From Oscillospiraceae bacterium (GTDB lineage: Bacteria; Bacillota; Clostridia; Oscillospirales; Oscillospiraceae), in the NCBI GenBank assembly GCA_902784305.1, contig CACZUK010000002.1, positions 505 to 64,504 on the forward strand: DNA of 64,000 bases, in the 5' to 3' direction. The translations under genes were made by a program, and so were the position numbers. Positions 23,065-59,255 of this stretch are shown piece after piece (the first letter of the stretch is position 1; each line of letters opens with the position of its first letter). The notes below the pieces were generated by a model that did not search any database, had not been told where the DNA came from, and saw only the letters and a program-made list of their open reading frames with translations.

Positions 23065-23218
23065 ATAGAATAACCGAATCAACCGGGAGGACGCCCTTTT
23101 GATCGCGTCCCCCGGGTTGCCTGTCCGGAGATGCCTCTGTCCGCAGAATGAGCCCGGGGAACCCCTGATTGCCGCCCACAGGTCATCAGCGGGTCCTCGT
23201 GCAGGGAGGTGCTGTGTC

Positions 23219-24646
23219 ATGTCCTTTTCGTTGAATAAGAAGGTGATTGTGCTGATTGTGAGCTTCGCCGCCATCATCAGCATGCTGGCCGTTGCAGTTT
23301 ATTACAAGGGAATTCACGATGTCGTTGTGTCCCAGTATGAGGGACGCTCCATCGACATTGCCAAATTGACGGCAGTGGAAATCGACGCTGAGCGGCTGTT
23401 GAAGGTTCAGCAGGCTGTGCTGGAAATCTACAACAGCACCGACAACAAAGTGCTGAGCGACCAGGCGGGAACGCCGGAGTTTGAGGCGTATCTCTCCCGT
23501 TACAAATCCATCGAAGAGATGGAGGAGTACCAGACGGTGCGTGCCGACCTGCGCAGAATGCAGGACGTGCTGGATGTGGACTGCCTCTACGTGTTCTGGC
23601 TGGACACGGTCAACGGGTGCTATGTTTACCTTGTGGACGCCGACAACGCCGACCCCTGTCCGCCGGGCTGCATCGACCCGCTCTATTCCGACATCGGCGA
23701 CACGCTGACGGACCCATCCCTGGGCTGCCCGCCCAACATCACCAACACGCCGGAATACGGCGGGCTGGTGACGACGGCGATGCCGGTCTATGACAGCAGG
23801 GGCGAGGTCATCGCCATGGCGGCTGTGGACATCTCCATGGATGTCGTTATGGCCCGGCAGCAGCGCTATTTGGTGTACGTCGTGCTGGCCTTCCTGGGCA
23901 TGACCATTCTCGTGTGCGTTTTGAGCATCCTGCTGGTGAATCACTACATCGTCAGGCCCATCAACACCCTCTCCTCGGCGGCGGCGCAGTACCGGCACAA
24001 CAAAAAGGTGTTTTCCAGCCTGCACATTTCCGGGCGCGACGAAATCGGCACCCTGGCTGCCTCCATGGTTCAGATGGAGGCGGACATCGACGGCTACATC
24101 ACCAACCTGAAGCGGACCTCCAACGACCTCATCTCCGCCCGCGAACACGCCGAGCAGATGGACCGCGCGGCGAACATTGACGCGCTGACCAAGGTCCGCA
24201 ACAAGCGCGCCTATGACATCGAGGTCCAGCGGCTCAACGAGAGCCCGCAGCCCTACGGCCTCATCATGATTGACCTGAACGGCCTGAAGGGCATCAACGA
24301 CACCTACGGCCATGAGAAGGGCGACATCAGCATCAAGACCCTCTGCCAGATGATTTGCCGGGTCTTCCAGCACTCTCCGGTATACCGGGTGGGCGGGGAT
24401 GAGTTCATCGTCATCCTCGAAAACAGCGATTATCAGGAGCGCTCGGCACTGATTCAGACGATTTCGGACCAATTTCAGCGCAATCTTGCCGACACCGTCC
24501 GGCCGCCCTGGGAGCGCGTGACGGCGGCGGTGGGCTACGCGGTCTGTGAGCCGGGCACGGGGGAGCGCGTGGAAAGCGTTTTGAAACGTGCGGACGCGGC
24601 GATGTATCAAAACAAAAAGGCAATGAAGGCCGCGCTCAAATCATAA
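23219..24646 (+). CDS. membrane diguanylate cyclase (extracytoplasmic sensor domain, HAMP-like, GGDEF)
   Basis: Two TM segments flank a region of about 250 aa. Intact YRVGGDEFIVIL, plus DALTKVRNKRAY and NDTYGHEKGD. GGGAGG RBS. Confidence 0.9.
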   Translation: MSFSLNKKVIVLIVSFAAIISMLAVAVYYKGIHDVVVSQYEGRSIDIAKLTAVEIDAERLLKVQQAVLEIYNSTDNKVLSDQAGTPEFEAYLSRYKSIEEMEEYQTVRADLRRMQDVLDVDCLYVFWLDTVNGCYVYLVDADNADPCPPGCIDPLYSDIGDTLTDPSLGCPPNITNTPEYGGLVTTAMPVYDSRGEVIAMAAVDISMDVVMARQQRYLVYVVLAFLGMTILVCVLSILLVNHYIVRPINTLSSAAAQYRHNKKVFSSLHISGRDEIGTLAASMVQMEADIDGYITNLKRTSNDLISAREHAEQMDRAANIDALTKVRNKRAYDIEVQRLNESPQPYGLIMIDLNGLKGINDTYGHEKGDISIKTLCQMICRVFQHSPVYRVGGDEFIVILENSDYQERSALIQTISDQFQRNLADTVRPPWERVTAAVGYAVCEPGTGERVESVLKRADAAMYQNKKAMKAALKS

Positions 24647-25016
24647 CAACCTCTGAGCTCCGGGGAACACTGCCCGGCGTGCGGACCTCCTGTGTCAGTT
24701 CTCCTGACCCGGGACGCCCTGCGCGCCGGGCGGTTTTTGCCTTTTCGCTCCGACACCAGCTTTGCGGTCTGCAAACAGGAATAAAAAGGCGAGCAAGATG
24801 CAGGGGATGGTATGATTGCCTCGAATGCTCGATTCTTTCGTGCTTTGGAAGAGCGAAGCCGTGGGAAAGTCACATGAGGAGACGACCGACTTTCGTCCTC
24901 GCACTCAGTCTGTCTATGGGGAGTTCAAAAGGAGCCACAGTCTGCCCACTCAGGCCGGTTTTTGCGGTACAAACTTTGAAAAAAATGCTTCGCCCCCGTA
25001 AAACGCAATTCTTTTC

Positions 25017-25045
25017 TTGAAAAGCGTCTGAGGTTGTGTTATAAT
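25017..25045 (+). promoter_or_regulatory. sigma-70-type promoter (TTGAAA-N17-TATAAT) of the RiPP-like operon
   Basis: Hexamers at 25017-25022 and 25040-25045. Confidence 0.6.
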
Positions 25046-25157: not shown

Positions 25158-26315
25158 ATGAACCGAGAACAGGCGTTGTTATTGACCGTATTGGGTGATT
25201 TTTTACACCAGAGAAAGACAGTCGCGCAAACGCAGGATTGCGCCTGGTCCGCTCTGTTCCGGTGTGGAGAGAAGCACAGGCTCAACGGCATTGTGTACTG
25301 CCAGCTCGGCAAACAGATTCCGGAGCCCTTCTTTTCGGAGTTTCACACGGAGTATCTGGCCTCCATCGTCCGCTACCGGCACAGACAGGTGCTTGTGAGG
25401 CAGATGGAGGAGGTCCTCCGGCGCAGCGGAGTGGACTATTTCTTCGTCAAGGGCGACTTAATCGGCGCGCTCTACACCAATCCGATGCTGCGCTCCGTCA
25501 GCGATGTGGACCTGGTGGTTCCGGCGGACCGGCTCGCGTCCCTCCACGACCCTCTGACGAAGGCGGGCTTTGAGCGCATCGAAAAGGGCAAGGGCGTCTG
25601 GGCCTACCGCAAGGAGACCGTGACCTTTGAGCTCCACAGAGCCCTCATTTTCTCCACCCACCGGGAGGATGACGCCATTGCGGACTATCTCCACCGCTGC
25701 TGGGACAGCGTCGAGGATGGAAAGCTGGACTGGAATTTCCACATGATTTATCTGCTCCTGCACCTGAGAAAGCACTTTCGTACCTCCGGTGTGGGATTCC
25801 GGCAATTTCTGGATCTGGCTTTTGTGGCCCAGAAGATTCCCCTGGACTGGGCCTACATCCGCAGGGAAATGGAAGGGCTGGGGCTGTGGCGATTCACCCT
25901 GACGGTGATGAACCTCTGCGACGTGTGGTTTGACACCCATTGCGCGCCGGAGAATCTGGAGCTGAACCGGGAATTTGTGGAACGGGCCACAGACACCATC
26001 TTCCGAAACGGCATCTTCGGCTACGCCAACGAGGAGAACAAGGGCAACGATTTCGTCAACGCCGCACGGAGCGACGGCCTTCCCGGTTTGCTGAAGCAGC
26101 TGCAGCTGCTGCTGTTTCCGGGCTATCTGGCGCTGCACAAGACGAGAAAATTCGGATTCCTGTACAACCGGCCCTGGCTGCTGCCTCTGGCCTGGCTGAA
26201 GCGCTATGTTCTCCTCATTTCGGAGCACAAGGCGGTGGGAAAGCTGCGCAGTCTGATTCGTATCCGCCATACGATTGGGAGACGGAACGACACCTACGAT
26301 GAATGGGGGCTGTGA
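25158..26315 (+). CDS. uncharacterised nucleotidyltransferase family protein (PF14907/NTP_transf_5-like)
   Basis: Central ...YFFVKGDLIGALY......SVSDVDLVVP... motif (G-x-x, DxD) and overall layout are typical of the family seen beside PqqD/HprK-like genes. Confidence 0.75.
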   Translation: MNREQALLLTVLGDFLHQRKTVAQTQDCAWSALFRCGEKHRLNGIVYCQLGKQIPEPFFSEFHTEYLASIVRYRHRQVLVRQMEEVLRRSGVDYFFVKGDLIGALYTNPMLRSVSDVDLVVPADRLASLHDPLTKAGFERIEKGKGVWAYRKETVTFELHRALIFSTHREDDAIADYLHRCWDSVEDGKLDWNFHMIYLLLHLRKHFRTSGVGFRQFLDLAFVAQKIPLDWAYIRREMEGLGLWRFTLTVMNLCDVWFDTHCAPENLELNREFVERATDTIFRNGIFGYANEENKGNDFVNAARSDGLPGLLKQLQLLLFPGYLALHKTRKFGFLYNRPWLLPLAWLKRYVLLISEHKAVGKLRSLIRIRHTIGRRNDTYDEWGL

Positions 26316-26348: not shown

Positions 26349-27461
26349 ATGCTTTGCTATCAAATCGGCCCTCTGAGCGTCAGTATGGACGCCGCGCCGG
26401 AGAGCTGGCAGCCCTTCCGGACGCAGAATGCGGCAGAGCCGCTGCTCCGGGTGGAGCGGACAGACGAGCCAGTGGATTTGACCGGCTGGCGGCTGATGGC
26501 GGAGCATGAGATGATGCACGTCTGGCGCAGGGAGGAGCTGTCAGCGGGCTGGCTGTTTCAGGACAGCCGCTTTCACGGCTGGCTCTGGCTCTCCCCCGAC
26601 GGGATGCTTGCCCGCTTCCACACGGCGGGGGCGCAGGAGGGCTCCTACGCGCTGCTGCTCCAGGCGGCGGCGGAGTGTGCCCTGATTCGTCTGGGCGTCA
26701 TGATTCTACACGCTGCCTGTGTGTGTGTGGAGGGGGAGGCGGTGGCCTTTTCCGGCCCCTCCGGCGCTGGGAAATCCACCCGCGCCGCGCAATGGGTGAA
26801 GCTGCTCGGTGCCCGGATGCTCTCCGGGGACCGGCCCGCCGTGGACCCCGCCTCCGGCATCGTCCGGGGTGTGCCCTGGGACGGCAAGGAGCGGGTGTTT
26901 GTCAACGCCGCCGCGCCGCTGCGGGCCATTGTGGAGGTGCGCCGGGGCAGCTGTGTGAAGCTGCGCCGGATGACGGACCGGGAGGCCCGGTCCTTCCTGG
27001 CCGGTCAGCTGTTGATTCCCATGTGGGACACGCCCCTGGCGGCAAAGGCACTCTCCGGCCTGCGCCGGTTGATTGCCCGGGTGCCCATCTACCGGCTCTA
27101 CAGCGATGGTGATGAGCAATCCGCCCTGAAAAGCTATGAGATTCTGTTCCGGAATCCGGAGCAGATTGAAGAATGTGAGGAGGAAATCAAGATGAGACTG
27201 AAGCCCGGATTTGAAATCGTACAGATTGACACCGATTATCTGGCGCTGCCCACCGGAGAGAACATCGCGGCCTTTGCCGGCTCTGTGGTGCTCAACGAGG
27301 TCTCCGCCACCCTGCTGCGGGAGCTGTCCGGGCGCGAGTGCAGCCGGGAGGACCTGCTGGAGCTGCTGCTGAACCAGTACAAGGTGGAACGGGACGTGGC
27401 CGCTCAGGATTTGGACAACATCCTCAAGACCTTCGCGGAAATCGGTCTGACCGAGGGATGA
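26349..27461 (+). CDS. HPr-kinase-like P-loop protein fused to a C-terminal PqqD-family (RRE) domain
   Basis: LHAACV..EGEAVAFSGPSGAGKST...SGD resembles the HprK C-terminal kinase core. The last 90 aa or so (MRLKPGFEIVQIDTDYLALP...VLNEVSATLL..L....S.EDLLELLLNQY.V....A..DLDNILKTF.E.GL) read as PqqD-like. GGAAGGAGG RBS. Confidence 0.8.
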   Translation: MLCYQIGPLSVSMDAAPESWQPFRTQNAAEPLLRVERTDEPVDLTGWRLMAEHEMMHVWRREELSAGWLFQDSRFHGWLWLSPDGMLARFHTAGAQEGSYALLLQAAAECALIRLGVMILHAACVCVEGEAVAFSGPSGAGKSTRAAQWVKLLGARMLSGDRPAVDPASGIVRGVPWDGKERVFVNAAAPLRAIVEVRRGSCVKLRRMTDREARSFLAGQLLIPMWDTPLAAKALSGLRRLIARVPIYRLYSDGDEQSALKSYEILFRNPEQIEECEEEIKMRLKPGFEIVQIDTDYLALPTGENIAAFAGSVVLNEVSATLLRELSGRECSREDLLELLLNQYKVERDVAAQDLDNILKTFAEIGLTEG

Positions 27462-27970
27462 GCCAGGCGGAGCAGTCCTCCATCGTCCTCTCGGTGGAGC
27501 AGTGGTTGGAGCTGGTGCAGCGGGGCGCGAACATCCCTGTCACCATCCCCCTGATGGGCACCAGCATGCTGCCCGTCATCCGCTACAAGGTGGACCCCAC
27601 CACCATCGTGCCCCTGCGCCGGGAGCCTCTGGAGGGGGACATCGTCCTCTTCCGCCGCTTTGGGGACGGGGCCTGGGTGGTTCACCGGGTCTACCGGGTC
27701 ATGGGCGACCAGGTCCAGACCTGGGGGGACAACAGCCCCCGGCCGGACCACCCCGTCAGCCGGGAGGACGTGCCGGGGCTGGTGATCTCCATCTGCCGGA
27801 ACGGCAAAACCATCCGTCTGGACACGGAGGAGCAGCGCTGCTGGGGTGTAAAGTGGATGCACAGTACAGTGCGCCGCCGCCTCTGGTTCGCCTGGAGCAG
27901 CCTCCGTTGGCTTCCGGGGAAGCTGATTCGGAAGGTCTGGCCGGATTTTCACAAGAACAAGGGGAACTGA
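27458..27970 (+). CDS. S24/S26-family serine peptidase (signal-peptidase-I/LexA-like fold)
   Basis: Nucleophile motif GTSMLP and downstream GDIVLF...HRV...GDN. The ATG overlaps the upstream stop (ATGA). Confidence 0.8.
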   Translation: MSQAEQSSIVLSVEQWLELVQRGANIPVTIPLMGTSMLPVIRYKVDPTTIVPLRREPLEGDIVLFRRFGDGAWVVHRVYRVMGDQVQTWGDNSPRPDHPVSREDVPGLVISICRNGKTIRLDTEEQRCWGVKWMHSTVRRRLWFAWSSLRWLPGKLIRKVWPDFHKNKGN

Positions 27971-27971
27971 T

Positions 27972-29117
27972 ATGCCGCAAGAACAGATGCCCCGCAGTCT
28001 GGCCCAGCTGATGGCTCAATTGCGTGCGGAGGGCGTGCCGGAATGGCAGTATCATCGGCGCATCATGCGCTATTTTGATTTCAAAGCCAGAGAAAAGGGG
28101 ATTCCCTTTACAGGCACCTTTGAGCTGACGCCCCTTTGCAACCTGGATTGCAGGATGTGCTACGTCCACCTGACCCGGGAGCAGATGGGCGGCGCGAGGC
28201 TCCTGGAGCCGGAGGTCTGGAAAGTCCTGATGGACCAGGCCATTGACGCGGGCATGCGCAAAGCCCGGCTCACGGGCGGGGAGTGCCTGACCTATCCCGG
28301 CTTCGACGAGCTGTATCTGCACCTCCAGAGCCGCGGCGTGGAGGTGATGGTGCTGACCAACGGCGTCCTGCTGGACGAGGCGCGGACGGCGTTTTTCCAA
28401 AAGCACCCGCCCTGTGAGATTCAGGTCACGCTCTACGGCTCCGATGAGGACGCCTACCAGCGCGTCACCGGACGGCGGATGTTCCAACGGGTGTGGGAGA
28501 ACGTGAACCGGGCCAACCGCGCCCAGCTGCCCCTCACCATCGCCATCACCCCCAGCCAGTTCATGGAGCGGGACGCGGACGCCCTGCTGGACCGGGCGGA
28601 GGAGCTGGGCCTGCCCTACAACATCAATTTCGGGCTCTTTGACCCCAGAGAGGAGACGGGACGGCAGCCGGGCGAGAGCATGGACGCCTCCCTGGACCTG
28701 TACATCCACCTCTACAAGCGCAAGCGCGCCCATCAGGGCATTGCGCTGACCCCGGTGGACGAGCGGGAGCTGCCCAGCCCCAGCACCGCCTCCGACCCCC
28801 GAAAAGGGGTCCGGTGCGCGGCCGGGCGCAGCATGTTTGAAATCGACTGGACCGGCACCATGTACGGCTGCACGAATCTGAGAAGCGTCCGGGCCAGGCC
28901 CCTGGAGACCGGCTTTGCCGCGGCGTGGCAGGTGGTCCACACCGGTGTGCAGGAGGTCATCATCCCCTCGGAGTGCGGCAGTTGCGTCTACGCGCCCATC
29001 TGCGTGGTGTGTCCCGCCGCCCACGAGCAGAACGGGTCCGCTGCCCACTGCAACCCCGTCTACTGCAAACGGGTGCAGAGGATGGTGGCGGAGGGATTGA
29101 ACGAAATTCCTGAATGA
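27972..29117 (+). CDS. radical SAM enzyme with C-terminal SPASM domain (peptide maturase type)
   Basis: CNLDCRMC radical SAM cluster and GGECL. C-terminal Cys set CAAGRS...GC...CGSCVYAPICVVCPA...C. Starts 1 nt after the previous stop. Confidence 0.92.
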   Translation: MPQEQMPRSLAQLMAQLRAEGVPEWQYHRRIMRYFDFKAREKGIPFTGTFELTPLCNLDCRMCYVHLTREQMGGARLLEPEVWKVLMDQAIDAGMRKARLTGGECLTYPGFDELYLHLQSRGVEVMVLTNGVLLDEARTAFFQKHPPCEIQVTLYGSDEDAYQRVTGRRMFQRVWENVNRANRAQLPLTIAITPSQFMERDADALLDRAEELGLPYNINFGLFDPREETGRQPGESMDASLDLYIHLYKRKRAHQGIALTPVDERELPSPSTASDPRKGVRCAAGRSMFEIDWTGTMYGCTNLRSVRARPLETGFAAAWQVVHTGVQEVIIPSECGSCVYAPICVVCPAAHEQNGSAAHCNPVYCKRVQRMVAEGLNEIPE

Positions 29118-29174
29118 TGTTTCCCCCTCCGACAGGGGAAGACATAGAACTGTCTGAAGAAAGGAGGACTCTCA

Positions 29175-29339
29175 ATGGATATGGAGAAGAAGGAGTACGA
29201 GACTCCCGTAGCCGAGAAGGTCAATTTCAGCTATCGTCAGCAGGTTGTCGCGGCCAGCGATGATGATGCTTGTGACGAGGTTTGGACCAGAAAAAAGGGC
29301 ACTGGCTGCCATGAAAAGCTGGTTTCCTACGGTGACTAA
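29175..29339 (+). CDS. 54-aa candidate RiPP precursor peptide (absent from the ORF track)
   Basis: Own translation: MDMEKKEYETPVAEKVNFSYRQQVVAASDDDACDEVWTRKKGTGCHEKLVSYGD. AAAGGAGGA at 29160-29168 lies 6 nt before the ATG. Located between the rSAM and exporter genes. Leader-like YETP (YxxP) motif, two Cys, and a Ser near the C-terminus. Confidence 0.6.
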   Translation: MDMEKKEYETPVAEKVNFSYRQQVVAASDDDACDEVWTRKKGTGCHEKLVSYGD

Positions 29340-29349
29340 GTTTTGAATC

Positions 29350-29372
29350 GGGAGGGGGGGAGACCCCCTCCC
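29350..29372 (+). promoter_or_regulatory. GC-rich hairpin directly after the precursor ORF (possible attenuator or mRNA stabiliser)
   Basis: 9-bp stem gggaggggg/ccccctccc with a 5-nt loop, 11 nt after the TAA. No clean T-run follows. Confidence 0.5.
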
Positions 29373-29449
29373 TCCTGTCTGTGGGCGCGTCAGATTGCTG
29401 CGCTGCCCGCGGCGGGAAACGCGAGCGGAACAGGACAGGGGGGAAGGCC

Positions 29450-31171
29450 ATGTTCCGGGACAAACTGAAAAAAGTCTTTGTCAGCCCTGCCCTGGGAGAC
29501 ATCGTGCGCTGGTCCAGACCGGCCCGTCTGGGGGTGGCCGGCATCTGTCTGACAGACGCCGTCAACGCGCTGTGCTCTCTGGGGACGACCCTGTGCACCA
29601 GGGAACTCATCGACGCGGCCACCGGTCGGGAGTGGGCGCCGCTGCGGCTGTACGGCATCCTGCTGGTGAGCGTGGCGGTGCTGGAGCTGATGAACGCCTA
29701 TGGTCACCGGCTCCTGAAGCGGCGCACGGAGGCGAAGCTGTACAACCACCTCTGTGCCCAGACCCTGACCCAGATTCTGGACAAGCAGTACGCCGGCATG
29801 GAGAGCTACCACAGCGGTGAGCTGGTCAGCCGCGTTCAGGGGGACGTGAGTCTGGTGCGCAACGGCATCGTCGGGGTCCTGCCCAAGCTGGTGTCCATGC
29901 TGGTGGGCTTCTTCGGCGCCGCGGCCATTCTGATTTCCATGGACTGGCGCTTTGCCTTTGCGCTGGTGGCCCTGGGCGTCATTGGTGCGTGGATGCTGGC
30001 GGTGCTGCGGCATCCCATGAAGCGGCGGCAGGCGAACGTGCGCAAGCTGGAGGGCAGCATTCAGGCAATGCTCCAGGAGACGCTGCAAAATCTGCGCCTG
30101 GTGAAGGCCAGCGGCAGCGAGGCCAGGATGGTGGACAAGCTCCGGGGCCGTCAGGAGCATTACTATGACACGGTGATGGAACAGACCGCCTTCTCCGCCA
30201 AGGTGAATCTGGGCATCGGCACGCTCTATCACGTCTCCTGGCTGTTCTGCATGCTCTGGGGCGGCTGGGGCATCTACCGCGGCGTGCTGACCTATGGCTC
30301 ATTGGCGGCAATCATCCGGCTGGTGGGGGAGATTCAGGCCCCCATCGGCGAGGCTGCCGAGCTGGCGGCGCAGGCGCTCTATACCGTCACCTCCGCCGAG
30401 CGGCTCAAGGAGCTGCTGGACCTGCCGGACGAGGAGGAGGCCCCCAACATCTCCGGGCGGGAGCTGTATGAGAGCCTGAGGGACATCCACGCGGAGCACC
30501 TCACCTTTTCCTATGGCCGGGAGAGCGACAATGTGCTGGAAAACGCCGAGCTCACCATTCGTCCCGGCTCCTTTGTGGCGCTGACCGGAGCGTCCGGCGG
30601 CGGAAAGAGCACCCTGTTCCAGCTCCTGCTGGGCATCTACCATCCCACCGGGGGCAGCCTGAACTTCCGCTTCGCGGACCACACCGAACCGGCCTCCCGC
30701 CGGACCAGACCTCTGTTCACCTATGTACCCCAGGGCAACACGCTCTTCTCCGGCACGCTGCGGGAGAACTTCTCCATGTTCTCTCAGGGCACCACGGACG
30801 AGGAGATTATGGACGCCGCCCGGGTGGCGTGCATTGATGAGCTGGTGGAGCAGCTGGAGGATGGTCTGGACACGGTCATCGGTGAGCGGGGCGTGGGCCT
30901 TTCTGAGGGCCAAGCCCAGCGGGTGGCGGTCGCCCGGGCGCTGCTGAGCCGCGCGCCGATTCTGCTTCTGGACGAGGCCACCAGCGCGTTGGATGAGCAG
31001 ACGGAGGCCCTGCTGCTCTCCCATCTGGAGGACCTGCGGGACAGGGGCCAGGAGCTGACCTGCCTGATTGTGACCCACCGCCGTGCGGCGCTGTCCATCT
31101 GCGACTACCGCCTGCATCTGGAGCAGGGGACCTTTCACCGGCTGGACGGGCGGGAAGCGGAAACGGTCTGA
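29450..31171 (+). CDS. ABC exporter, fused permease and ATPase (MsbA/bacteriocin-exporter type, no peptidase domain)
   Basis: Six-TM N-terminal half. Walker A GASGGGKST, signature LSEGQAQR, Walker B ILLLDEATSALD. Start trimmed to the ATG at 29450 (MFRDKLKK). Confidence 0.9.
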   Translation: MFRDKLKKVFVSPALGDIVRWSRPARLGVAGICLTDAVNALCSLGTTLCTRELIDAATGREWAPLRLYGILLVSVAVLELMNAYGHRLLKRRTEAKLYNHLCAQTLTQILDKQYAGMESYHSGELVSRVQGDVSLVRNGIVGVLPKLVSMLVGFFGAAAILISMDWRFAFALVALGVIGAWMLAVLRHPMKRRQANVRKLEGSIQAMLQETLQNLRLVKASGSEARMVDKLRGRQEHYYDTVMEQTAFSAKVNLGIGTLYHVSWLFCMLWGGWGIYRGVLTYGSLAAIIRLVGEIQAPIGEAAELAAQALYTVTSAERLKELLDLPDEEEAPNISGRELYESLRDIHAEHLTFSYGRESDNVLENAELTIRPGSFVALTGASGGGKSTLFQLLLGIYHPTGGSLNFRFADHTEPASRRTRPLFTYVPQGNTLFSGTLRENFSMFSQGTTDEEIMDAARVACIDELVEQLEDGLDTVIGERGVGLSEGQAQRVAVARALLSRAPILLLDEATSALDEQTEALLLSHLEDLRDRGQELTCLIVTHRRAALSICDYRLHLEQGTFHRLDGREAETV

Positions 31172-31545: not shown

Positions 31546-31701
31546 ATGAAAGGCAATGAAAGATTTATCGAGCATCCAGCCCACACAGCGGAGCATCTGA
31601 AATCTGAGGAAAATCTTCAGGAGGCATTTGAGGAGCTGCTGCTAAAAGCGCTTTGCTCCAGAGTTCCGGTGAGCTTTCTTCTGAACGAGTCAGAGGCGTG
31701 A
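31546..31701 (+). CDS. 51-aa hypothetical small protein (absent from the ORF track)
   Basis: GGAGG lies 7 nt before the ATG. Own translation: MKGNERFIEHPAHTAEHLKSEENLQEAFEELLLKALCSRVPVSFLLNESEA. No family recognised. Confidence 0.3.
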   Translation: MKGNERFIEHPAHTAEHLKSEENLQEAFEELLLKALCSRVPVSFLLNESEA

Positions 31702-34500: not shown

Positions 34501-35952
34501 TCAGACCTCCTTTTGATAATAGTAGAAGGTCTTATCCTCTCCGGCCGGACGCATACAGGCCGCGAGCATCCGCCGGGACGCTTCATTCTCCTTGTAGCAC
34601 CGGGCGACCACGCGGGAGAGCCGAAGCCCATAGAGCCCCCAATCTGCGGCACAGGCAAAGGCCTCCGTGCCGTATCCATGGTGGGCGTATTCCGGCGCGA
34701 TGCGGCAGCCCAGCTCAGCGCCTCCGCGTCCATCGAAGCGGTAAAACACCAGCTCACCGATGCACACGCCGTCCAGCCGAACGGCAAAGTTGACCGCGAC
34801 CTTTCGGGCAAAATCCTGCCTGACCGTGTCGAGGAAGTAGTCCGACAGCGACTCCCCCTTCCAGTCCTCCCGATAGTCGTAGCCCCAGAACCGGTTTCGC
34901 TCGTCGTCCAGACACAGCGCGTTGTAGGCGTCCCGGTCCGCATCGGTCAGGGCGGAGAGGCACAGCCGTTTCGTGTGGAGCGTGGGGACGCAGTCCAGGT
35001 CGTACAGCTCATTTTCAACGTTAAAGCACAGCTTTTTCAGCAGTTCAGCGGGAAGATATTGCAGCTTCGAGGTGCGCAGGCCTTTGTCGTTGCAGTCGTC
35101 CTCCCGATTGACCCAGCTCACGCCGTCTCCGGCGAAGCACTGTACAAATCCCTGCACGGTGGCAGGGTAAACCCCCTCATAGCTGTAGAGGGCCTTTTCA
35201 ATCTGGATGTGCAGGGTATCCCCGCAGCGCTCAGCCATGGACACCGAGAGCAGCTTGCCGTCCAGCTCGATGCCGCCGGTGCAGTAGTCCTGCTCTCCGG
35301 CCAGACGAAGCGCCTTTTTTGCGCTGCGCAGCTCGTCCAGGGCTTCCTCAGAGGCTTTGGTGAACTGCTCGTCGAAGTCGCGCCAGAACTGCTCCACCAG
35401 CTCCGCGTCCCCCTTTCCCAGAGGCCGAAACACCGCGCCGGGATAGAGCTTTCGGAACTTATTCACATGATTGCGCCGTCCGGAATACCTCCGTCCCGAA
35501 AAGCGGCGCAAATCCTCCGCCCGGTACAGGTAATCGGACCAGGCGCGCAGGCTGGTCACATGAAAGCGCGGGTAGCGGGCGAGCAGCCGGGCGGATTCCT
35601 CCATGGGAATAACAAAAAAGGACAGCTTTTCGCCCTTCTCCGCACAATAGCGCTCGATTTGCTCCAGTGCCGCGTCCACGTCACCTGCCGGGCCGGGCAC
35701 GGGCATTTCATAATAAAACCGGTCCTGATACTTGCTTCGCACCAGCAGACAGCCCGCCGCCTCTGCCCACTCTGAGGGCATGGTATCGCGCAGCATGAGC
35801 TTCATGAGCGAGGAGTATTCGCAAAGCCGATAGGAGCACGCGCTGTAGTACCGGCGCAGCAGCGGAAGGCTGCTCTCGGTGACAGGGGCAAAGCTCAGCT
35901 TGGGTTTGTCCGGACAGGCACATCGGAATCCGGTTTGATTTTCTGATTGCAC
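34501..35952 (-). CDS. DUF2156 (LPG-synthase-C-like) domain fused to a RimJ/RimL-type GNAT acetyltransferase
   Basis: The N-terminal 300 aa or so resemble the phosphatidylglycerol lysyltransferase C-terminal-like fold. The C-terminus reads ...IGELVFYRFD..GGAELGCRIAPEYAHHGYGTEA....W....L.L.RV.ARC...N.AS.R.L.. Confidence 0.75.
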   Translation of the reverse strand: MQSENQTGFRCACPDKPKLSFAPVTESSLPLLRRYYSACSYRLCEYSSLMKLMLRDTMPSEWAEAAGCLLVRSKYQDRFYYEMPVPGPAGDVDAALEQIERYCAEKGEKLSFFVIPMEESARLLARYPRFHVTSLRAWSDYLYRAEDLRRFSGRRYSGRRNHVNKFRKLYPGAVFRPLGKGDAELVEQFWRDFDEQFTKASEEALDELRSAKKALRLAGEQDYCTGGIELDGKLLSVSMAERCGDTLHIQIEKALYSYEGVYPATVQGFVQCFAGDGVSWVNREDDCNDKGLRTSKLQYLPAELLKKLCFNVENELYDLDCVPTLHTKRLCLSALTDADRDAYNALCLDDERNRFWGYDYREDWKGESLSDYFLDTVRQDFARKVAVNFAVRLDGVCIGELVFYRFDGRGGAELGCRIAPEYAHHGYGTEAFACAADWGLYGLRLSRVVARCYKENEASRRMLAACMRPAGEDKTFYYYQKEV

Positions 35953-58757: not shown

Positions 58758-58831
58758 GCGGGTGTAGTTCAATGGTAGAATCCCAGCCTTCCAAGCTGGT
58801 CGCGTGGGTTCGATTCCCATCACCCGCTCCA
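58758..58831 (+). tRNA. tRNA-Gly(UCC), CCA encoded
   Basis: Cloverleaf folded by hand. Acceptor GCGGGTG/CACCCGC, anticodon loop CTTCCAA, T-loop TTCGATT. Confidence 0.9.
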
Positions 58832-58845
58832 TTCCAGCTTCATAT

Positions 58846-58919
58846 GCGGCTGTAGCTCAGTAGGATAGAGCAACTGCCTTCTAAGCAGTGGGCCGGGGGT
58901 TCGAATCCCTCCAGCCGTG
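58846..58919 (+). tRNA. tRNA-Arg(UCU)
   Basis: Acceptor GCGGCTG/CAGCCGT (G1-U72), anticodon stem ACTGC/GCAGT, loop CTTCTAA, T-loop TTCGAAT. Confidence 0.88.
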
Positions 58920-58955
58920 TTTTTCCGGCTGGCTGAGAGCTGGGACAATTGATAT

Positions 58956-59030
<75 letters not shown>

Positions 59031-59086
59031 CTTTTCCTTGACAGCCAGACGGTTGCATCCCTTCCGCTCTGGCTCTCTTTTTTCGA

Positions 59087-59158
59087 TGGGATGTCGCCAA
59101 GCGGTAAGGCAAAGGACTTTGACTCCTTCATCCGTGGGTTCGAATCCCGCCATCCCAG
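59087..59158 (+). tRNA. tRNA-Gln(UUG)
   Basis: Acceptor TGGGATG/CATCCCA, anticodon stem AAGGA/TCCTT, loop CTTTGAC, T-loop TTCGAAT. Confidence 0.9.
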
Positions 59159-59179
59159 CTCTGAACAATCCAACCATAT

Positions 59180-59252
59180 GACCCAGTAGCTCAGCTGGCA
59201 GAGCAGCACCCTTTTAAGGTGACGGTCCGGGGTTCGAATCCCCGCTGGGTCA
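59180..59252 (+). tRNA. tRNA-Lys(UUU)
   Basis: Acceptor GACCCAG/CTGGGTC, anticodon loop CTTTTAA, T-loop TTCGAAT. Confidence 0.9.
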
Positions 59253-59255
59253 TAG

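Follow-up and report, generated by a model that had tools for sequence, protein, structure and literature searches.

Is the 54-codon open reading frame (ORF) between a radical S-adenosylmethionine (rSAM) gene and an ATP-binding cassette (ABC) exporter gene of an Oscillospiraceae bacterium a gene at all, and if so, what is its product made into? The ORF lies on contig CACZUK010000002.1 of GenBank assembly GCA_902784305.1, of which the whole stretch analyzed here, 64,000 nt in length, is called the window. A sequence-only reading of this DNA had taken the ORF for the likely precursor of a peptide that is made on the ribosome and modified after translation (RiPP). Comparison with related sequences indicates that it is a conserved, translated coding gene under purifying selection. 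It probably encodes a leader-guided RiPP precursor, the pathway of which joins the toolkit of the linear polyphosphorylated peptides (LPPs) to an rSAM enzyme.

A conserved coding gene between the rSAM and exporter genes

The ORF has exactly the coordinates and translation of the sequence-only reading and lies, as described there, between the rSAM and exporter genes (Table 1): 57 nt past the stop codon of the former and 110 nt ahead of the start of the latter, all three genes being on the + strand. The strong ribosome-binding site reported six nucleotides before the ATG is also present, as the Shine-Dalgarno sequence AAAGGAGGA, and the same sequence is kept upstream of the precursor in relatives L081, L084, and L001. 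The length of the ORF is uninformative on its own because short ORFs are abundant in this GC-rich window: 156 ORFs of at least 40 aa were counted in 20 kb of the 60% GC window, several of them overlapping the precursor ORF in other frames. This abundance is what speaks for a chance open frame, or for a stretch separating the rSAM and ABC genes that is not translated, and the case for a gene therefore rests on comparison with other genomes.

A protein search with the window peptide returned eight other protein clusters, 75-94% identical to it. The alignment of the nine clusters has an invariant block at the N-terminus (KKEY.[TA]P.A.KV.F.YRQQV) and another at the C-terminus (CDE.WT.KKGT.C...LV.YGD), joined by a linker of variable sequence. 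Comparison of codons gave a ratio of nonsynonymous to synonymous substitution (dN/dS) of 0.056 against L084, where synonymous (pS) and nonsynonymous (pN) differences stand at 0.62 and 0.07, and of 0.088 against L001; synonymous sites are saturated versus the relatives. Gene predictors called the ORF independently in other assemblies, with the same gene order. Given a dN/dS of 0.06-0.09, the conservation of a strong Shine-Dalgarno sequence, and an amino acid motif kept over 133 peptides while the DNA has diverged beyond recognition, the chance frame and the untranslated spacer are effectively refuted.

Precursor genes follow the rSAM gene across gut and rumen Clostridia

A relative of the window rSAM is encoded in 473 stretches of a species-representative genome set, and about 2,000 relatives at E < 1e-10 are present in the protein collection. 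From the 473 stretches, 80 loci were fetched via homologues of the window rSAM (41-57% identical). These come nearly all from Oscillospiraceae, Acutalibacteraceae, Lachnospiraceae, and unclassified Clostridia, and are gut and rumen metagenome-assembled genomes. Small-ORF listings show the same type of peptide immediately 3' of the rSAM gene in most of them. A leader profile, run against six-frame translations of all 80 loci and the window, matched the window and 73 of the 80 loci with 151 matches, 149 of which are on the rSAM strand. Each matched locus carries one to nine precursor copies in tandem, nearly always just downstream of the rSAM gene, and together they amount to 133 distinct peptides. 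The leader matches, the low dN/dS, and the conserved synteny bear out the assignment of the ORF as the precursor of an rSAM cluster.

For synteny, the 52 loci were counted whose sequence extends 4 kb or more to both sides of the rSAM gene. Of these, 50 have PqqD, 49 an HprK-like protein (usually fused to PqqD), and 45 a Sec11/SipW-type peptidase; the ABC exporter was found by tblastn in 45 of all 80 loci. Where one locus holds rSAM paralogues, a separate precursor type comes after each of them, and the enzyme is therefore tied to the peptide encoded after it. This suggests that rSAM enzyme and substrate diversified together.

Several loci depart from the common layout. A second rSAM paralogue is found in L015 (8529-9750), L044 (8800-10012), L045 (8925-10218), and L048 (9023-10214), where the precursors belonging to it have a three-Cys core and the leader variant Y-S-[YF]-x-E-Q-[VL]-V-A-x-S, and also in L008, L013, and L023. 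Arrays of four to nine tandem precursors in L004, L008, L028, L031, L033, and L041 combine near-identical leaders with unrelated cores, and several copies in the L004 array lack the second Cys or both. A different rSAM of about 470 aa with a CNARCFYC motif precedes the precursor array in L033 (9424-10810) and L041 (9387-10812). These two arrays hold CxxxC-repeat peptides with the same VVVASG junction (L033, 11229-11577; L041, 11251-11599), and one CxxxC-rich peptide of this type weakly matches TIGR04117, the Cys-Xaa-Xaa-Xaa repeat radical SAM target (E 0.0055). In a subgroup (L026, L050, L054, L063, L066, and L078), PqqD is encoded by a gene of its own upstream of that for the rSAM, the HprK-like protein is shorter (250-336 aa), and the leader profile matches weakly or not at all; these loci probably form a sister family whose leader differs. 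In L055 and L076, both well flanked, an rSAM gene and a leader-bearing peptide were found with no HprK, PqqD, or peptidase detected within 4-7 kb, and the pair of rSAM and precursor may thus occur apart from the LPP-type toolkit. Several loci (L010, L013, L019, L023, L028, L031, L032, L038, and L041-L043) are in genome bins that bear the names Phocaeicola, Alloprevotella, Alistipes, Bacteroidaceae, Prevotella, Succinivibrio, or Coriobacteriia, although their gene content looks Clostridial, which could reflect mis-binning or horizontal transfer.

A conserved leader and a hypervariable core with two cysteines

The division into leader and core proposed in the sequence-only reading is real as judged from the family alignments: the N-terminal 25-28 residues are conserved and the remainder is hypervariable. 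Across the family the leader reads MKKxYxxPxxExxxFxYxxQVVAxS, and the 133 distinct peptides give the fuller consensus M-K-K-x-Y-x-x-P-x-[AV]-E-[KV]-[VI]-x-F-x-Y-x-[DE]-Q-V-V-A-[SA]-S-G. Leader columns are 80-100% conserved (Y in 131/132, P in 133/133, F in 126/133, and Q in 121/133), and core columns have an entropy above 3 bits save for the two Cys. A Ser stands two or three residues after QVV in 131 of the 133 peptides and corresponds to S28 in the window. The alignments thus single out Y8, P11, S28, C33, and C45, three of which (P11, C33, and C45) are invariant columns among 45 diverse peptides. The YxxP motif noted earlier as an element read by PqqD-type domains is accordingly a family feature, and the PqqD domain fused to the window kinase matches the lasso proteins TfuB1, TbiB1, and PbaB1, consistent with such a role.

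Exactly two Cys are present in 102 of the 133 peptides and three in 21. In the window they are C33 and C45; the earlier count of two Cys stands, and their spacing, given there as 13, is 12 positions with 11 residues between them. The expectation that YxxP and Cys spacing would be conserved beside homologous rSAM genes was borne out for the motif and for the presence of two Cys, whereas the separation of the first Cys (C1) from the second (C2) varies, mostly between 10 and 15 residues, with hypervariable sequence between them. The residue at C1+4 is W or Y in 56 of the 102 two-Cys cores, and the tail past C2 measures 10-12 residues in 71 of them, with a peak at 11 aa.

The window core also contains the single Trp, the Lys pair, and the Ser three residues from the end that had been pointed out as possible modification sites (W37, K40-K41, and S51). 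The proposal that S51 is the phosphosite did not survive comparison: S51 is S or T in nine near-identical relatives, but with C-termini as variable as they are this does not hold for the family, and two-Cys peptides of the family have no conserved C-terminal Ser. The near-invariant junction residue S28 is the better candidate, paralleling a Ser known to be phosphorylated in LPPs (see below). The net charge of the window core is negative, and the product would therefore be unlike a classical cationic bacteriocin. When the window peptide and as many as five diverse relatives were scanned against Pfam and NCBIfam with E up to 10, only noise came back, and searching the protein collection with a precursor profile gave 123 clusters, the named ones all being called "hypothetical protein".

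Enzymes of the cluster

The rSAM enzyme has nine invariant Cys, namely C56/C60/C63 of the CxxxCxxC motif, C282, C300, C335, C338, C344, and C347, and a near-invariant C365. Those of the C-terminal part form a SPASM-type 7-Cys motif (C282-x17-C300 with G295-x4-C300, C335-x2-C338-x5-C344-x2-C347, and C365); the Pfam SPASM model gave no match to the C-terminal 131 residues. Just about 45 residues, forming two helices, precede CxxxCxxC, leaving the enzyme without an N-terminal recognition domain, so the kinase-fused domain is the only recognition domain of the cluster. Bit scores against NCBIfam models (score/cut-off) are 56/381 for PqqE, 49/265 for MftC, 43/300 for SkfB, 40/850 for AlbA, 38/340 for PapB, and 29/625 for StsB. 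An AlphaFold2 model (predicted local distance difference test score, pLDDT, 91) has SkfB, SuiB, anSME, and PqqE as its nearest folds (template modeling score, TM, 0.5-0.67) and superposes over its full length on anSME (TM 0.64-0.67). In a sequence search of solved structures the rSAM core alone was matched, with SkfB best at 48 bits.

In the 370-aa protein, the recognition domain is fused to the C-terminus of an HprK-like domain, an arrangement shared by the window and all 32 aligned homologues. The motifs GxSGxGKS, SGDRP, and GVPWDGKE are invariant in this alignment; Pfam PqqD is matched by 32/32 homologues and Hpr_kinase_C by 17/32. The window protein matches HprK_rel_A and HprK_rel_B weakly. 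Compared with solved structures, its profile matches TfuB1 best (E 1e-5), then TbiB1 and PbaB1, and HprK structures at E 0.002.

The 170-aa gene, left unassigned in the sequence-only reading, encodes a predicted leader peptidase of the Sec11/SipW type that is homologous to LppS of the LPPs. Pfam gave no match for it, and TIGR02228 matched with 38 bits, under its cut-off; its profile matches human SEC11A and SEC11C. Invariant in the alignment are S36, H76, and G90-D91, within the boxes G.SM.P, HR, and GD. Against LppS (WP_029196374.1), hhalign gave a probability of 98.7% (E 1.8e-16); the BLASTP alignment, 31% identical (E 1e-10), places GTSM and HR opposite the LppS catalytic residues: S36 and H76 fall on S29 and H68, and, by reading of the BLASTP alignment, D97, in a column that is mostly D/E, falls on D93.

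The nucleotidyltransferase ORF opens at GTG 25098, ATG 25158 being the likely start. The ABC exporter consists of permease and ATPase domains with no C39 peptidase domain, and its NCBIfam matches, to MsbA-type and bacteriocin-exporter models, are all under their cut-offs.

Relation to linear polyphosphorylated peptides

The closest described counterpart of this gene set are the LPPs of Bacilli, represented by lppA-K-B-S-D-N of Paenibacillus alginolyticus (Popov et al., Nat Commun, May 2026; PMC13381572). Encoded in LPP clusters are LppS, a signal peptidase of the archaeal type, the discrete recognition protein LppB, the HprK-like kinase LppK, the NTP transferase LppN, and LppD, a pump similar to MsbA, and the domain tables for these clusters list NTP_transf_5, TIGR02228, PqqD, and TIGR02203 (PMC13381572). 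The precursors have the leader YxxPxVLxHQxIxFETxxS and variable C-termini, and the YxxP leader has been shown structurally to bind its recognition domain (PMC13381572). LppK adds up to four phosphates to Ser3 of the LppA core; LppS, with the catalytic residues S29, H68, and D93, depends on presentation of the leader by LppB for its cut after T-1, and requires F-3, E-2, and T-1 (PMC13381572).

The window genes fall into the same hidden Markov model families (NTP_transf_5, TIGR02228, PqqD, and TIGR02203), and the cluster has an LppS-homologous peptidase, a PqqD element, an HprK-like domain, an NTP_transf_5 protein, and an MsbA-like exporter. The precursors are likewise small, one to several per cluster, with a YxxP leader, a conserved Ser that follows the conserved block of the leader by 2-3 residues, and a C-terminus of hypervariable sequence. 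There are also differences. An rSAM/SPASM gene is near-constant in the window family but is not mentioned for LPPs: radical SAM, SPASM, and PF04055 do not occur in the main text and those supplements of the LPP paper that were examined (PMC13381572). Two Cys are invariant in the window-family cores, whereas the four LPP cores examined have none or one. In most of the window family the recognition element forms part of the kinase protein, and in LPPs it is discrete; the leader consensus diverges past YxxP, with only YxxP and the downstream Ser in common. Hosts are gut and rumen Clostridia as opposed to Bacilli, and no lasso-peptide cluster lies alongside in the window. The LPP product is linear, its cluster having no enzyme for cyclization or cross-linking, while the window operon and the conserved gene set include a gene for an rSAM/SPASM enzyme. 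The system therefore misses the LPP class on three points: its product would not be linear, its recognition element is fused, and its leader consensus differs. The LPP paper does list a few Clostridial peptidase clusters, marked "ND" (not analysed; PMC13381572).

Proposed pathway and its alternatives

In the pathway that we propose, the PqqD domain would bind the YxxP leader as an extra beta-strand, as suggested by the alternating V-x-V-x-F-x-Y pattern, and offer the peptide to the partner enzymes. The rSAM/SPASM enzyme, having no recognition domain of its own, would be recruited to the PqqD complex as PqqE is by PqqD, and would form cross-links in the core that start from or pass through Cys33 and Cys45, most likely thioethers. 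One thioether may join Cys33 to the aromatic residue at +4 (W37), the aromatic bias at C1+4 hinting at one cross-link acceptor. The HprK-like domain would then phosphorylate junction Ser28, possibly several times as LppK does; this residue is favored because it is near-invariant and is placed like LppA Ser3 past the leader end (FET|AQS versus QVV-AAS). The NTP_transf_5 enzyme may decorate the phosphate further. Leader removal by the Sec11/SipW-type peptidase would fall within or just after QVVA(x)S; the site is given as the range between V25 and S28 because LppS cleaves after F-E-T. For the same reason the canonical A-x-A rule of signal peptidases, which was considered for the cleavage, need not hold. 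The MsbA-like ABC transporter would finally export the product. We infer the cross-linking, phosphorylation, and cleavage chemistry of the precursor from its sequence and by analogy.

Several results weigh against this reading. The rSAM reaches no NCBIfam equivalog cut-off, and because it matches no characterized maturase family the thioether chemistry is a guess from precedent. W, Y, or F occupies C1+4 in 57% of the two-Cys cores and is absent from 43%, and no acceptor position is conserved past C2 among these cores, so a plain disulfide together with some other rSAM reaction is possible. NTP_transf_5 was found by tblastn in just 26 of the 80 loci, and all co-occurrence figures are conditional on the rSAM because the loci were gathered through its gene. 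As to kinship with LPPs, hhalign of the window leader with two LppA sequences gave probabilities of 0.5% and 6%, with no homology beyond K-x-Y-x-x-P, and BLASTP of the window recognition domain with LppB gave a non-significant E of 0.14, the domain being closer to lasso B1 proteins.

The alternative raised by the missing acceptor would keep the precursor role and have the two Cys merely form a disulfide or bind a metal, while the rSAM carries out another reaction. Known reactions of this kind are C-C or C-O cross-links on Trp or Tyr (streptide, darobactin, PqqE), epimerization, and C-terminal reactions like that of MftC. Such an outcome is unlikely in our estimate, though it has some backing: the best partial NCBIfam matches of the rSAM are PqqE and MftC, SuiB is among its nearest folds, aromatics are enriched at C1+4, and a variable C1-C2 spacing with hypervariable sequence between would fit simple loop closure. 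It has to contend with the Cys being the sole invariant residues of the core, and with Cys-rich CxxxC variants in related loci that have the same leader end. SPASM maturases with invariant-Cys substrates mostly form thioethers, and the 43% of cores without W, Y, or F at C1+4 count against this alternative as well.

Comparison with sactipeptides, lasso peptides, and other rSAM systems

Sactipeptide and ranthipeptide systems (AlbA, SkfB, CteB, PapB) resemble the window in placing a SPASM 7-Cys rSAM beside a Cys-containing precursor and an exporter, and SkfB is the nearest solved structure to the window rSAM. The relation of C1 to position i+4 recalls the CxxxD motif of PapB, and is taken here as a lead only. 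One could accordingly read the ORF as an ordinary precursor of this kind, with the kinase, nucleotidyltransferase, and peptidase-like genes as mere neighbors, since a small ORF with Cys between an rSAM/SPASM gene and an ABC exporter is the classical layout and SkfB is the best PDB match by both structure and sequence. We regard this as very improbable. The HprK-PqqD and peptidase genes stand beside the rSAM gene in 87-96% of well-flanked loci from very divergent genomes, and the kinase-recognition fusion and a serine leader peptidase are obligate companions in the window family. The rSAM lacks the N-terminal recognition domain typical of such synthases and is far under all cut-offs of these families, no sactipeptide or ranthipeptide NCBIfam model coming near. 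The two Cys, 10-15 residues apart, are a further difference, and the junction Ser kept in 131/133 peptides would have no role.

Compared with phosphorylated lasso peptides of the paeninodin/pseudomycoidin type, also from Bacillota, the window shares an HprK-like kinase, NTP_transf_5, a PqqD-type B1 reading a [Y/W]xxP leader, and an ABC exporter, and its PqqD profile matches lasso B1 structures best. It differs in having neither an Asn-synthetase-like macrolactam cyclase nor a B2 transglutaminase-type cysteine protease among the genes at 25.1-31.2 kb, and while lasso kinases phosphorylate a C-terminal Ser, the window family has no conserved Ser there. With regard to pyrroloquinoline quinone (PQQ) and mycofactocin, the rSAM scores far below the PqqE and MftC equivalogs and the precursor is unrelated to the PqqA/MftA type.

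The SynChlorMet (ScmC/ScmE/ScmF) and HprK-related kinase A/B systems, which come from comparative genomics by Haft, also associate an HprK-like P-loop protein with rSAM/SPASM enzymes. The window proteins match HprK_rel_A, HprK_rel_B, ScmE, and ScmF weakly, and a close homologue has a faint ScmC match in Pfam, but the scores are 24-48 bits against curated cut-offs of 200-400, and those systems are uncharacterized and found in other phyla. These systems, those of HprK-related kinase A/B being called GeoRSP, also include a PqqD-family protein; no Sec11-type peptidase is known to us in them.

Standing of the system among known RiPPs

The precursor gene set joining LPP machinery to an rSAM enzyme appears undescribed. 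A literature search that did not extend to subscription journals and figures found no paper describing the window gene set or the leader sequences, and no relevant follow-up to the LPP paper; in the rSAM compendium papers there is no mention of a kinase or of a signal peptidase, and the literature found on HPr kinase, radical SAM, and RiPPs covered only lasso clusters. Polyphosphorylated peptides were first described in 2026, only in Bacilli and as linear products (PMC13381572). The LPP toolkit of recognition, kinase, peptidase, and exporter together with an rSAM is a new combination, and the family that uses it is much larger: its rSAM is found in no fewer than 473 species-level genomes, mostly of uncultured gut and rumen Clostridia.

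A bolder proposal, which we put forward tentatively and hold to be less likely than not as a whole, is that the window represents the founding example of a widespread RiPP class of gut and rumen Clostridia. In this class, one kinase-fused recognition domain would coordinate rSAM cross-linking at two Cys, (poly)phosphorylation of a Ser that may be decorated further, and removal of the leader by a serine peptidase of the Sec11 type. The rSAM enzyme would install a previously unseen type of cross-link, for example a Cys-to-Trp/Tyr thioether from i to i+4 or a link joining the two Cys. Independently of this proposal, the predicted serine-protease leader peptidase is an addition to rSAM RiPP biosynthesis.

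The window ORF is in any case one member of a large unannotated precursor family, which makes the sequence-only reading more general than it appeared. The precursors are annotated, if at all, as hypothetical proteins and have no Pfam or NCBIfam model; the 25-residue leader signature could let annotators find genes of under 60 aa that ORF tracks miss. In their hypervariable cores lies a large, untapped natural-product library from organisms that are abundant in the gut microbiota, making the system relevant to both natural-product and gut-microbiome research.

Operon features and surroundings

The operon appears, from its sequence, to start at a promoter-like site upstream of the nucleotidyltransferase gene (Table 1). 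G/C-rich hairpins of the form GGGAGGGGG...CCCCCTCCC, similar to the one directly 3' of the window precursor, were found 3' of the precursor gene in L084, L001, and L003, the L003 copy with a T-run; none was found in L021, L035, and L073 when those loci were compared. The window hairpin may stabilize or attenuate the transcript, and may govern how abundant precursor transcripts are relative to enzyme transcripts. The 57 nt that separate the rSAM stop codon from the precursor are identical in L081 and kept at 49/57 positions in L084. They hold a short inverted repeat, CCCCT CCGAC AGGGG, at 29122-29140 that was noticed by eye.

Table 1. Positions of the cluster features in the window.
Feature	Position	Strand	Remarks
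Promoter-like site, TTGAAA-17-TATAAT with TG extension	25017..25045	+	11/12 consensus matches; upstream of first cluster gene
NTP_transf_5 nucleotidyltransferase, LppN counterpart	25158..26315	+	PF14907, E 3.2e-34
HprK-like P-loop domain (residues ~100-230) with C-terminal PqqD RiPP recognition element (313-367)	26349..27461	+	370 aa; PqqD E 7e-9
Sec11/SipW-type (archaeal/ER-type) signal peptidase I homologue, LppS counterpart	27458..27970	+	170 aa; without N-terminal membrane anchor
Radical SAM enzyme with SPASM-type C-terminal Cys motif	27972..29117	+	381 aa; PF04055, E 4.6e-20
Shine-Dalgarno sequence AAAGGAGGA	29160..29168	+	6-nt spacer CTCTCA before precursor ATG
Precursor peptide gene	29175..29339	+	54 aa and stop; ATG start (ORF listing, translation)
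Leader region, M1-S28, KKEYETPVAEKVNFSYRQQVVAAS	29175..29258	+	Y8-x-x-P11; codon of junction Ser28 at 29256-29258
Core region, D29-D54	29259..29336	+	Cys33 at 29271-29273; Cys45 at 29307-29309; W37 at C1+4
G/C-rich stem-loop, 12 bp, without T-run	29349..29377	+	Directly 3' of precursor stop; -28.6 kcal/mol, z -2.05
MsbA-like ABC exporter, LppD counterpart	29450..31171	+	573 aa; ABC_membrane and ABC_tran

Directly upstream of the cluster lies a gene for a HAMP-GGDEF diguanylate cyclase (23099-24646, +), closed by a terminator-like site at 24715-24732. It has the same place in the close relative L081, and a regulatory link between this gene and the cluster is possible. A PADLOC scan for defense systems returned nothing beyond generic rSAM and ABC similarity. 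Past the ABC gene, an ORF of 51 aa (MKGNERFIEHPAHTAEHLKSEENLQEAF...; 31546-31701, +) equals by position a 51-aa gene called in L081 and L082. An ORF at 34501-35952 (-) corresponds by position and length to a 483-aa gene that is found near the cluster in L081 and has LPG_synthase_C and GNAT domains, resembling the C-terminal part of MprF. Farther downstream, five tRNA genes are found at 58758-59253 (+), for Gly-TCC, Arg-TCT, His-GTG, Gln-TTG, and Lys-TTT.

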